Positions 43,801-52,800 of a DNA stretch of 64,000 nt are shown piece by piece. Position 1 is the stretch's first letter. Each line of letters starts with the position of its first letter. Source of the DNA: Escherichia coli. GTDB lineage: Bacteria > Pseudomonadota > Gammaproteobacteria > Enterobacterales > Enterobacteriaceae. Position numbers: made by a program. The stretch is from the NCBI RefSeq assembly GCF_013122565.1, contig NZ_CP053258.1. The stretch is one strand, 5' to 3'.

Positions 43801-46800
43801 GATACACACCGAAAGCAGCACATAGCGAGTCAGACTTTTATATTTTACTTTTTTCGCTACTGAAATAGCGACCTGCTTGACATAACTGGTGCGGATCATC
43901 CGAAACAACAGAAAGATGACCAACGGCCCAAGTAACGAAATCAGGAACAGCGCATATAACGAGGGTAGAAGCTGGTATAGCCCCCAACTCATTGCACTCA
44001 ACATGATTAACGACAGAAATCCTGCCACCAGAGGTTGTGTAAGAAATAATTCTATTTTGTGGTTCTGCTTTTTCTTAAACCACGAAAAATCGATATTCTT
44101 CGTGACGCATTTATAAGCCCAGTACGCCTTGAGATCAAAAATAAAATTATACAGCACCAGGACCAGAATCCCACTAACTACACCAATATCCTCTGATGGA
44201 AAAGTAAACCCTGCATTTTTCCAATAAAAGCCTATCAGAATAAGTCCAATAGCATAAATGTATATCAGATTTCGTTTATCCTGAAAGCGAATAAAAGTTA
44301 AATAATCAGGAATCATTTGAATACCTTCGCATCACTAAATGCTTTACGACAATGCATAACTCGTTGCTGATCCACGCCAGCAAAATCATTTAACATATTC
44401 CCCAAATAGGGCTTATTACTTATTTCAAGGAAAGCTACCGGGGTTGGCATATTCAGAAATGTATCGAGAGATTCAGTCCATTTCACCGTATGAGTTAAGT
44501 GTAATGAGAGATTTTCTTTGATAATTGACGGAGCGACCTCGCTTTTTGCTGTTACGTTCATCAGAACCTGATGCTCTGGCGAAGCGATATCCAGTCCGGC
44601 AAGATAATCGCGCATTGCCTGAACGCCGTCTTCCATCAAACGCGTGTGCCAGGCACCGCTCACACCGAGTTTAACCGGTTCGTACCCAGCGGCCATCAGC
44701 AGCGTGGCAAATTCATTCAACGCAGTCTGCGTTCCCCCAATAACCTGCTGGCGCGGCGTGTTATCACAGCTAATATCCAGCGCAATGCCTGATTCCGTAA
44801 TCATCGTCTGCAGTTGTTCGCGGTTGATGCCTTTAACCGCCAGCATTGCGCCTTTATTTCTCTGGCTTTCGTCATGCATCAGGCTGGCTCTGAAGTGAAT
44901 CATGCCAAATAGCGTCTCAAGAGAAATAGCTCCAGCGGCGTAGAGCGCACTGTATTCACCAACGCTGTGTCCGCAGGAGCCCACAACCGTTAAATTCTCA
45001 AGACGCTCGCGGCACAGGGTATAGAGCGTTACATTAATTGCGGTCACCGCCAGTTGTTGTACCGTCGTTTGAATAAGGCGATTCATCGGCCCTTTCTGAC
45101 ACAGGCGACGCAGGTTCAGTCCGGAAATATCGCTGGCACAATCCCAGATATGTTTTGTACTGGCGTTGAGATCCCAAAGATCGCTGCCCATACCAATAAC
45201 CGGATTACCCTGACCGGCAAAAAGCAGTACTGTCGGTTGTGAAGCATTATTCATCATCTCTTTATCCTTATAGATAGTATTTAAAGCCCAAATAAAGGCC
45301 TAACGTGTCGCCAAAAAGCGCAAATTCAGAATACCGACTTCCCAGCGCGCTATAGCCACCGGCATAGGCTTCAAGCTGGTTACTGATAGCGCTGAGCGGC
45401 GTGGAATAATGCAGGCCCAGCAACGTACTGCCATCAATGAGATTGACCACCAGCGAAGGCTGCAGCGTCGACTCTCCCGCCAGCGGCAGACTGGCCCAGG
45501 CGTTCAGATAGTGCTTACCCTGCAGCATCCCCTGATTGGCGGTATTGCTGATTTCTGAAGCCATCAGGTATTTGTAAGAATCAAATGCCTGATCCAGTGG
45601 CGCATAGCCGGTTGTGGTATTGAGGAAGTCAATTAACTCGCGCTGCTGACGCTGTTCAGCGCGCGAATAACCCTCGCTCTGAAAGTAATACTCAACGCCA
45701 AACACGCTGAAATTATCACTGGTGTACTGCCCACCCAGCGCCAGCTCCACGCCGCTTTCATCTTTCGTTTCATAGAGCGAATCCGGAAACTGATATTCCT
45801 CGACCTGCGCCGTCTCACGGTGGGAAAGATGCCGCCATTGCTGGGAGCGGTGGTAGGCTGCGTCGACATTCAGCGTAAGCTGCGGGGTGTAGTGATAACT
45901 GTCAGACAGCGCGAGTGACGGCGATGGTCCGAGCCGCACATTGACTGTCGGCGTGTGCTCACCAAAGCGATGATCGCTGAAGCTCAGCAGATAGGCTTCG
46001 TCGCTGTTTCCCTGCTGATTAGCCGACCAGTTGCCAGACGTCACATAGCGTTTGTCGATGGTGGCTAACTTCGGTATGACACTCGCCGAAAACGCATAAT
46101 CGCGTGTATCCACGCTCATTTTTGCGCCCCACGATGACGCCTGATACGCCGATGTCATTTTGGGATCGTGCAAACGCGTCGACTGGAATCCAGTGTAATA
46201 ATGCGTTTGCAAATCAGAAGGCGAACGCAAAAAGAACATTCCTGACGGCGCGGCAAATTTGCCTGCTTCAAATTGAACGCTGTCCGAGGCACTATAGACC
46301 AGACTGAAGCGGTTAATTAACGCACGCGTGCGGCTATCATCCGTTTCGAATTTCCCTGCAGGTTTAAGCGCATATTCGTTTATTCCATACAGATTGAGCT
46401 TAAGGTCCAGCGTATTGTCGATTATTGAACAACCACTATTGATGCCAATCCCCGCCTCCTGATAACCGTTGTGACGTGTGTAGGGATTTTTGCCTGCAAT
46501 CTGCCAGGCCGAAGCCTGTTTATTGACATAAGACACCTGCTCGTAGAGCGTCACATCGCTGTTTTGTGCCACCTCGTCACCTGACAGGCAATCCGCCTGT
46601 ACCGTCAACGGCAGCGCAACACACAGCAACGAAGAGATCTTCAGCGTGCGTTTCATTTCGCACCTCGCTGAATATACTCTTTGGTGAAATGAAACTCTGG
46701 CAGCGATTCCAGACGAACATCGCTGTACTCCATCACTGAATAGTTATTGCCGTGACGGACATCGGTAACGGTTATTTTCATGGGTCGCGTTTTCCCCAGC

Positions 46801-49800: not shown

Positions 49801-52800
49801 AGATTAAAAAACTGAAAAATAAAACCCAGATGTTTTCCACGAATCACAGCTAACTGCTCTTCCGGCAGTTGGTTCAGTAATTTATTTAAAAATATCACCG
49901 TTCCGCTGGTCGGTTTATCAATACCCGAGAGAATATTCAACAGAGTACTTTTACCACTGCCTGATGGCCCACACAGTGCGAGAAATTCGCCTTTATTGAT
50001 ATCAAGATTAATGCTTTTAAGCGCATCAACCTTTCCTGCCCCGGCACCATAACACTTGTAAATGTTGCTAAGCGAAATAGCGGGCAACGATTTAATAGTA
50101 GATTGCATACGACTGTCGTTATCCTTCAAGGTATTCAAGGTCAAAGTAGTGATAACCAAACTGTTTATCGGCAATGACCGTACGCATTTTTCCACCGGGC
50201 TGAATATGACGGGTTAAATAATCCATACTCAGCGCGGGCGTCAGACAACCGCTTTCTCCGTAATGGGCTACCAGGTCGATAACGCCAGCAGCAGGCCGGG
50301 ACGGCATTTGTCGCCGTTCGCTGAAGGCCATGACATCAATATCCGTAGCATGCTGTGGCGCAGTGCCGGAATGATATTCCCCGCATTGCAGCCTGATGGC
50401 GCTCTCACGCTGGCTGAGAATAAAACAACCCACGCGTTCAACAGATAAATTCACCTCATCAGCACGACGGGGGAATAAACGCTTAGGCGGTTTACCCACA
50501 TCCTCTTCAGAGAATACCAGTACCGGAATTGCCCGATAGGCAGCGCAAATCACCACGTTATCGAATACATCCCAGGCGAGATAATCCTGCGCCATACGCA
50601 GCGCCTGAACGAATGCCTGTTTTTCGCCACGAATTTTGCAAGTCGGCTCAGTTATCGAAAACTTCTTAAGTAAATTCTTGGGAAGCGTATCAATAGTGGC
50701 GATATGCAGCGCACTGGAAATTTTTTCAAACGGACCGGATTCGCCCCAGGAATCGGCATAAATAAATGCCGTGCGCGATTTCATTAACTTCATGCGTTCT
50801 TTAGTCGGCATTTGTTGTAATGCAGAATCGGTCACCTGCTCCATCGCCTCAAGGTAAGGCATATATTGCGGATTACGGATCCGTTCCGGCGCATAAATAT
50901 CGTTCTCAACGCCAAAGCGCTTCAGCCCCCAGCCATTAGCACGGGTGCCATATAATCCTCTTTCGTACATATGTGCTTCCCAGGCGTTGAGCCAGGTCGG
51001 CTGATAAAAATAAAAAATGTCGTCCGGTTCCGTAAGCGCCCAGGAAGACAGGTAGATACTCTTTTCCGTCATTTCGCGCGCCCCGCTTGCATATTTGACA
51101 TAACAACGCCAATAACCGAACCATCGACACCCACACCAACCTTCAGCAAATGGCGTTTGCTATGGTTTGTCACGCTGCCGTCCGTAAGTACCAGCGAAGC
51201 CATGCTGTCGATAATGACGTCGTTACCAACAGGTGCGATCAGTTGATGATGCGTCAACGAATGGTGGCCAATGATCAGATCGACAACACCGGATCCGGTT
51301 GCGGTATAGCCGATCTGCCCTTTATAGGCGAGAACGGGGATCTGCCGCTCCCCTGCGAACATGGTGATGGCTTTGGCTTCCGCGTTATCGCTCACTGCCG
51401 AACCGTTGCCGTGTGGAAGAATGGCTGCAAGATCATCCAGCGCAATTTCAGCCTGCTTCATCGCGGCCTGCATGACCTTGTGCACGTTAGTGCTAAGCCA
51501 GGAGGCATCGTTGCTGCGGCCCGCGCTGATTTGGGTGTAAGTCGTTTGCACCCTTACGCCCTCACTTTGTTGACGCGCCCGGCGGTGATGAGCGCTTTCC
51601 AGTAGGAGCGCGCTAAAACCTTCTGCGAACGCCACACCTTTACTGTTTTCACCAAACGGCTGAACCTGTTCGCTGTCCAGCATCGATTGCGTTTCCAGGA
51701 ACCAGATATCCTGGGTTTTAATTTTCGAACAGTTCAGCACAATCGCGAGATCAATCCCGCCCTGCTCAATGCCCTGCGTCGCCAGATGCACCGCAGTCAG
51801 TGACGAGTTACTGGTGCAGTTCATGTTAGGCGGCAAATACTGCAAGCGATATTTGCGCGCAAGATGGCTTGAAATCGTGTCCTGCGACATCTTTGAGGCA
51901 TGCAGATTTGTGATGGATTGCGTTAAGTTGATATCTTCTACATCGTTGTAATTATAGAAAGATTTGTAATCCAGCCCGTCGATACGCGGCCCAATACCGG
52001 TCAGATAAACGCGAACGTTGCGCCCGGCCAGGCAATGCTTATCCAGCATTGCCTGTTCCAGGGCTTCGTCGATCAACTGAGACAGCAGGTCCAATGCGCT
52101 ATCGTCCACCTGTTTCAACGTCGCCACTGACGGATTACCCTTAAACCCGCATTTAATGGCTTCCTCGTTGGAGGTAAACCAGGGTGTACGCGCAACGCGT
52201 TTCCCCTGTTTCAGATTGTCAATTAACTGCGAACAGTCTTCGGCATACGGCATCCACACGCTGTAACCCGAAATAATAGCGGCATTGTCCACAGTCTTAT
52301 CCCTTAATGACGAACGCGTAGTAGTTGCCGCCTTCCGTTGCGCCAACAAGCAGGACATGGTTCAGCGCAAGTTTCATCGACTGGCGTACAAAATTCACAC
52401 GCTCATCAAAGAATTCCACCGTATTTGGAATCGCAGGTACTGCCTGCTTCTTAATGCAGTCAGTAATCACGGCGAGGTTAAGCAAACCAGCGGCAGAGGC
52501 GACAAAACCAAAGCAAGCGTTGTAGTTCACTACCGGCACCGCCGGGTTTTGCGCAGCGAAGGTGTTGTAAATGGCGTCAATTTCGATACGAGAATGGTCA
52601 TCGCTGCCGTTGCTGGTACCACAGACCAAATCAATATCGCCAGCAGAGATGCCCGCATGCGTAAGGGCGCGTTCAATGGCCAGCGCCATCGACGCGGATT
52701 TTTCTTCCAACAATGAGGCGTCGAAGTAGGTATTACTACATGACTTACCGTAGCCCACCACTTCCGCGAGAACCTCAGCGCCACGCGCCGCAGCCAACTG

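Follow-up and report, generated by a model that had tools for sequence, protein, structure and literature searches.

A five-gene, partly Lol-like module within a type II fatty acid/polyketide synthase-like cluster of Escherichia coli and its possible role in lipid export

How Gram-negative bacteria carry specialized lipids across the periplasm is poorly understood; for aryl polyenes, widespread though they are, there is only a proposed route. The question is raised again by a locus of Escherichia coli (assembly GCF_013122565.1, contig NZ_CP053258.1), which we analyzed within a 64,000-nt stretch of DNA (hereafter, the window). At positions 45268–50108, on the minus strand, five intact, translationally coupled genes lie inside the operon of a type II fatty acid synthase/polyketide synthase (FAS/PKS)-like cluster. 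They encode an ATP-binding cassette (ABC) ATPase, an FtsX-type permease, a LolA-like protein, a TPR-like protein, and a predicted outer-membrane β-barrel. An earlier note, made from the sequence of this DNA, had described them as a Lol-like envelope export module dedicated to the biosynthetic locus. After profile, structure, and synteny comparisons, we consider it somewhat probable that the five genes constitute a route of envelope export dedicated to the lipid that the surrounding cluster makes.

Each of the components named in the earlier note was recovered. The ABC ATPase (49401–50108, minus strand, 235 aa) is a LolD/MacB-type nucleotide-binding subunit with canonical motifs: Walker A (GPSGSGKS, residues 47–54), the signature LSGGQ (at residue 152), Walker B (VVIADE, residues 172–177), and the H-loop (residue 209). 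RefSeq starts the gene at the ATG at 50108, and the mechanically called open reading frame (ORF) extends to a GTG at 50195. Its best NCBIfam match was LolD (TIGR02211), with 228.3 bits, which is below the cut-off of 307.75, and its PDB matches were MJ0796, LolD, YbbA, and MacB. The permease (47450–48760, minus strand, 436 aa) combines an FtsX domain (Pfam, E = 6.7e−18) with the large periplasmic domain that the earlier note had described, a MacB-like periplasmic core domain (MacB_PCD, E = 5.6e−9) at residues 44–268, between hydrophobic segments. The pair therefore has the arrangement of a type VII ABC transporter, in which an ATPase is paired with an FtsX transmembrane (TM) domain whose TM1 and TM2 flank a periplasmic core domain. 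The nearest PDB relatives of the permease were LolE (6e−14), LolF (9e−13), LolC (2e−7), and MacB (3e−5), placing Lol proteins ahead of MacB and FtsX; against the LolC/LolE model TIGR02212, it scored 91.5 bits, with a cut-off of 362. Five hydrophobic segments were found (residues 5–23, 47–65, 295–313, 352–370, and 401–419), compared with the usual four. The extra N-terminal hydrophobic helix (residues 1–23, window positions 48692–48760) precedes the canonical TM1 and corresponds to a conserved hydrophobic stretch in both of the cluster subtypes described below; it is absent from a distant variant (L006).

The LolA-like protein (46653–47441, minus strand, 262 aa) matched the Pfam family PF17131 (LolA_like, TP_0789-like) over model positions 2–184 of 184 (E = 3.2e−36) and the PDB entry 3BUU (“LolA superfamily protein NE2245”; E = 3.5e−34), so that the resemblance to LolA-type carriers noticed from the sequence survived both profile and solved-structure searches. 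PF17131 was the only Pfam family reported, with no match to canonical LolA or LolB even at E ≤10. An N-terminal signal peptide is present in all of the orthologues, and together with the full-length match it places the protein in this family. Since the orthologues do not share the Cys that lies close to the signal peptide, the protein was taken to be soluble, and a lipoprotein was rejected on the same ground. A further periplasmic protein had also been anticipated, and the gene at 48761–49417 (minus strand) encodes a TPR-like helical-repeat protein of 218 aa, which carries a signal peptide but lacks a lipobox.

The fifth protein (45268–46656, minus strand, 462 aa), which the earlier note had called an outer-membrane barrel, yielded a high-confidence model of an 18-strand β-barrel, the structural class being that of OprD/AlgE. 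It had no Pfam match at E ≤10 and no NCBIfam match, so the likeness to AlgE lies at the level of the predicted fold only. The family is very rare: at 90% identity it comprises 86 clusters, and 1.84 billion cluster representatives gave only 57 matches with E ≤1e−3. The mature protein starts with a conserved Asp/Asn-Cys, the Cys (residue 23) being the second amino acid past the predicted signal-peptidase I site, and a second, nearly invariant Cys occurs at residue 76; the pattern suggests that Cys23 and Cys76 form a disulfide. A lipoprotein was again rejected, as the residue before the first Cys excludes a lipobox and no lipobox is conserved. RefSeq labels two of the five module proteins “hypothetical.”

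The module is tightly packed into the biosynthetic operon. Its internal junctions are −17, 0, +8, and −4 nt, and a gap of 10 nt separates it from the flanking biosynthetic gene on each side. Ketosynthase (KS) genes lie upstream and the genes for a FabD-like protein and YcdU downstream, all on the same strand and in the same operon, in agreement with the view that the transport genes are co-operonic with the KS and acyl carrier protein (ACP) genes. A promoter and terminator scan performed no better than on shuffled sequence and gave no evidence for internal transcription units.

To follow this linkage across species, we used 42 loci, 40 from a scan of one genome per species and two fetched individually, with DNA covering both sides of the module. 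The scan used a narrower barrel alignment (A4), the very divergent alignment (A3) being too variable. The loci came from Enterobacterales, Acinetobacter, Neisseria, Utexia, and Paraburkholderia, and in all 42 the order was GcvT, KS-KS, KS, the 317-aa protein, ABC ATPase, TPR-like protein, FtsX permease, LolA-like protein, barrel, and FabD, usually followed by YcdU; one subtype carries an additional short-chain dehydrogenase/reductase (SDR) gene between the permease and LolA-like genes. This second subtype occurs in Serratia, Erwinia, Cedecea, and Paraburkholderia, with a barrel identity of 26–31%, and the first in Enterobacter, Kosakonia, Klebsiella, Mixta, Acinetobacter, Neisseria, and Utexia, with a barrel identity of 44–64%. 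The identities of the five module proteins co-varied with ketosynthase identity (Spearman coefficients of 0.77–0.87), as would follow from inheritance of the cluster as a single unit. Within E. coli, the five genes differed from those of O157:H7 by 76 synonymous and 19 non-synonymous changes, with no stops and no length changes; the dN/dS values of 0.016–0.20 indicate purifying selection. Because the same five genes recur in the same order in the same cluster at every locus, and because they are under purifying selection, their grouping is more than chance, and the dedication to the KS/ACP locus claimed in the earlier note is strongly supported by this invariant synteny and co-divergence.

Distant metagenomic relatives of the barrel again adjoin ABC, FtsX, and PF17131 genes. 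One such variant has these genes together with a KS, a thioesterase, and a holo-ACP synthase, and another has the same parts in shuffled order, among them a clear TPR-like protein homologue (hhalign 98.5%, E = 1.7e−15). Judged from synteny, co-divergence, selection, and this linkage in distant variants, the module is a conserved functional unit tied to ACP-dependent lipid synthesis. A further metagenomic contig (L051, positions 1239–11302) contains two adjacent FtsX/MacB_PCD genes, comparable to LolC plus LolE, as well as a POTRA-domain protein and a PEMT/ICMT-like methyltransferase. No ketosynthase was found in the approximately 10 kb of upstream sequence visible on this contig, and thus the set of ABC, FtsX, PF17131, and barrel genes may serve other lipid pathways too.

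How far, then, is the module a Lol system? As in Lol, a type VII ABC extractor, made up of a LolD-like ATPase and a permease nearest to LolE, LolF, and LolC, and a soluble carrier of the LolA superfamily are combined in an arrangement that follows an inner- to outer-membrane logic. In contrast to Lol, the module has one permease gene (although single-permease LolDF systems exist), its carrier belongs to PF17131 rather than to canonical LolA, and its outer-membrane end consists of the predicted 18-strand barrel and the TPR-like protein in place of LolB, no LolB-like gene being present in the module. Its presumed cargo is a small lipid instead of a lipoprotein, and its genes sit in a biosynthetic operon. 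By sequence comparison, the module stands outside the Lol pathway, because it falls below the LolC, LolD, and LolE equivalog cut-offs, lacks a canonical LolA match, and has no LolB. The housekeeping lolCDE genes are located elsewhere, as the earlier note had assumed, approximately 111 kb away in a near-identical strain. A recent duplication of lolCDE was considered and rejected, as the identities are too low (42% to the housekeeping LolD of that strain, 23% to LolE, and the membrane part only for LolC). The description “Lol-like” is consequently fair for the inner-membrane and periplasmic half, where the ATPase and permease are closest to Lol among the solved type VII systems, but unfair for the outer-membrane half.

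The anatomy of the module makes it reasonable to suppose that its product traverses the periplasm to end in or on the outer membrane, and from this anatomy we infer the direction of transport, the cargo, the protein contacts, and the final location as follows. The product would be built in the cytoplasm on the ACP of the cluster itself and would then arrive at the inner membrane's periplasmic leaflet, a step for which the conserved polytopic protein YcdU is a candidate. A homodimeric type VII ABC transporter, composed of the ATPase and the FtsX/MacB_PCD permease, would then use ATP to extract the product from the membrane and load it onto the soluble PF17131 carrier. The carrier would cross the periplasm to the dedicated 18-strand barrel, with the TPR-like protein as a putative docking or assembly partner of the barrel or the permease, and the barrel would insert the lipid in the outer membrane or expose it at the surface. 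Such a role is consistent with the type VII ABC transporters described so far, which act at the periplasmic face and typically serve a partner protein by extracting lipid-like molecules, as in Lol and as proposed for YbbAP-TesA (PMC12646458).

Several points weigh against this route. No flippase was identified, YcdU having no family. The permease shares only 23% identity with LolE over 255 aa, and in a BLASTP comparison with LolC the TM region alone aligned, with no alignment to the LolA-binding periplasmic hook of LolC; the docking of the carrier by the permease therefore stays a proposal. The TPR fold is generic, and the role assigned to the TPR-like protein is hence guesswork. A barrel of the OprD/AlgE class is equally compatible with a channel that releases the product to the medium. 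In the literature, we found no study of the cluster, its product, the localization of the product, or the module.

The point about the barrel bears on the first alternative, in which the module is a secretion or self-protection pump that expels the product or a toxic intermediate to the medium and is closer to MacAB-TolC- or DevBCA-type exporters. We regard such a pump as unlikely, though it is the strongest of the competitors. The ATPase and permease do belong to the MacB/FtsX superfamily, and the barrel does resemble the channel-forming OprD/AlgE barrels; however, no membrane-fusion adaptor of the MacA/HlyD type, as in MacAB-TolC, was found among the cluster proteins screened, and a soluble LolA-type chaperone implies a shielded hydrophobic cargo, which is typical of membrane-to-membrane delivery.

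A second alternative concerns the cargo, which, instead of a free lipid, might be an acylated protein, such as a lipoprotein or the adjacent two-partner-secretion adhesin in lipid-modified form. Lol proper carries lipoproteins, and a two-partner-secretion pair lies directly upstream of the cluster on the same strand, comprising an FHA-type exoprotein (59847–63659, 1270 aa) and ShlB (58139–59758), the stop of ShlB lying only 15 nt from the start of acpS. FHA/ShlB homologues also lie beside the cluster in Utexia (L003) and at two Erwinia loci (L034 and L038). Nevertheless, these three were the only loci with such homologues, in views that covered approximately 8–10 kb of downstream flank per locus with the upstream flanks not visible, and the signal-peptide proteins of the module have no conserved lipobox. 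On this evidence, a protein cargo appears improbable.

Still less credible is uptake, in which the barrel, the carrier, and the ABC system would take in an exogenous or outer-membrane lipid for the KS enzymes to use as primer or substrate. Barrels of the OprD class do usually serve as uptake channels, and the direction of the module is derived from its parts; however, the known type VII ABC transporters act outward at the periplasmic face and do not import across the inner membrane, and the cluster has its own malonyl transacylase, ACP, and phosphopantetheinyl transferase for de novo synthesis. Equally improbable is a regulator akin to FtsEX-EnvC, a precedent from the same superfamily, in which the ABC/FtsX pair would move no cargo and would activate the TPR-like or LolA-like protein by mechanotransmission, since the permease is nearest to LolE, LolF, and LolC and not to FtsX, and no hydrolase or other enzyme domain was detected in either periplasmic partner.

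Returning to lipid export, the nearest precedent in concept is the aryl-polyene cluster with its ApeL, ApeM, ApeN, and ApeG proteins. There, the LolA-like ApeL, the LolB-like ApeN, and the resistance-nodulation-division (RND) transporter ApeM have been proposed to deliver a pigment lipid to the outer membrane (PMC8253772; bioRxiv 10.1101/2020.12.19.423268). Both are specialized-lipid clusters of Gram-negative bacteria of the type II FAS/PKS kind with Lol-like genes of their own. Whereas the aryl-polyene system has an RND/MMPL transporter and a LolB-like lipoprotein, the present module has an ABC/FtsX pair and a barrel, and neither an RND/MMPL transporter nor a DUF3261 LolB-like protein was found among the cluster genes. 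The present cluster also differs in having the GcvT-like protein, the KS-KS fusion, the 317-aa protein, and YcdU, and in having no aryl-starter genes. YbbAP-TesA differs in having a hydrolase as partner instead of a carrier, a permease with 10 TM helices, and no outer-membrane component. The combination of an 18-strand barrel with a periplasmic TPR protein recalls AlgE/AlgK at the fold level only; the module barrel has no Alginate_exp Pfam match, its TPR-like protein is short and is not a lipoprotein, and the cluster has no polysaccharide synthesis genes. A defense-system reading was dropped, as the PADLOC library gave generic ABC/FtsX domain matches only. A count of the type VII ABC systems in E. 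coli K-12 gave four (PMC12646458), and by its domain arrangement the module would give the island-carrying strains a fifth. The five-part architecture and the barrel family are undescribed in the literature that we found; the design principle is already known.

We put forward, with less confidence than the export route itself and as something that may well prove otherwise, the possibility that a previously unrecognized five-part trans-envelope pathway, comprising a type VII extractor, a PF17131 carrier, a TPR dock, and a private barrel, puts a polyketide-like lipid on the surface of enterohemorrhagic E. coli O157:H7 and scattered Proteobacteria. Found in a major pathogen lineage, the module is compact and, with its five genes, can be separated genetically. 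It points to a cell-surface lipid encoded by the island that carries it, named O-island 47 (OI-47) in O157:H7, and it gives context to two orphan families, those of the barrel and the TPR-like protein, as well as to YcdU. E. coli K-12 keeps only ymdE and ycdU from the cluster (layout per PMC4951805) and so would be a clean heterologous host. The ymdE pseudogene and ycdU of K-12, treated as an unexplained locus in a mastitis-genomics paper (PMC4951805), appear to be a 3′ remnant of the cluster, equivalent to window positions 43330–45257.

The remaining genes of the cluster are all on the minus strand. Those upstream of the module (50119–58123) were named from the RefSeq annotation of a 99.4% identical locus and from NCBIfam. 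From the distal end, they encode the holo-ACP synthase AcpS (57755–58123), an SDR ketoreductase (56980–57741), a FabZ-like dehydratase (56428–56976), the ACP (56125–56406), the GcvT-like protein (54929–56089), the 852-aa KS-KS fusion (52297–54855), a second KS (51069–52292), and the 317-aa protein (50119–51072), for which no Pfam, NCBIfam, or PDB relative was found. The GcvT-like protein, a member of the aminomethyltransferase family, is unusual for a KS/ACP cluster. Among the genes of the cluster, none was found that codes for an enoyl reductase. Downstream of the module are the FabD-like malonyl transacylase (44313–45257; TIGR00128 fabD, E = 4e−52) and YcdU (43330–44316), a polytopic membrane protein with no Pfam, NCBIfam, or PDB family; the FabD stop and the YcdU start overlap by 4 nt. 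Conserved as the last gene of the cluster, YcdU follows FabD in all type-1 loci and many type-2 loci, with 41% identity in the Utexia orthologue.

The window spans the E. coli chromosome around the tRNA-Ser gene serX (10956–11043). In a near-identical strain, the layout is mdoC, clsC, the csg operons, ycdXYZ, ghrA, serX, a CP4-like island, and ycdU. Window positions 41072–64000 share 99.4% identity with strain PapRG-04-4, and the module region shares 98% identity with O157:H7. The 4.8-kb module was found in 389 of 5,426 complete E. coli genomes, including O157:H7, with a coverage of at least 80% in 382 of these. In O157:H7 reviews, OI-47 is a 31.7-kb island of which the GrvA regulator is the only studied part, and the OI-47 papers are restricted to GrvA and the distribution of the island. 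Between serX and ycdU lie approximately 32 kb of mobile DNA (11100–43100), with a CbtA/YeeU toxin-antitoxin pair, antirestriction genes, YfjI-type genes, insertion sequence debris, and, at approximately 24000–29200, a chaperone-usher fimbrial operon. The GC content of this DNA is low at 20–24, 28–30, and 38–40 kb. Toward the cluster, a P4-type integrase ORF (41160–42251) encodes 363 aa, compared with 400 aa in PapRG-04-4, and is followed by an IS200 transposase gene at 42542–43051.

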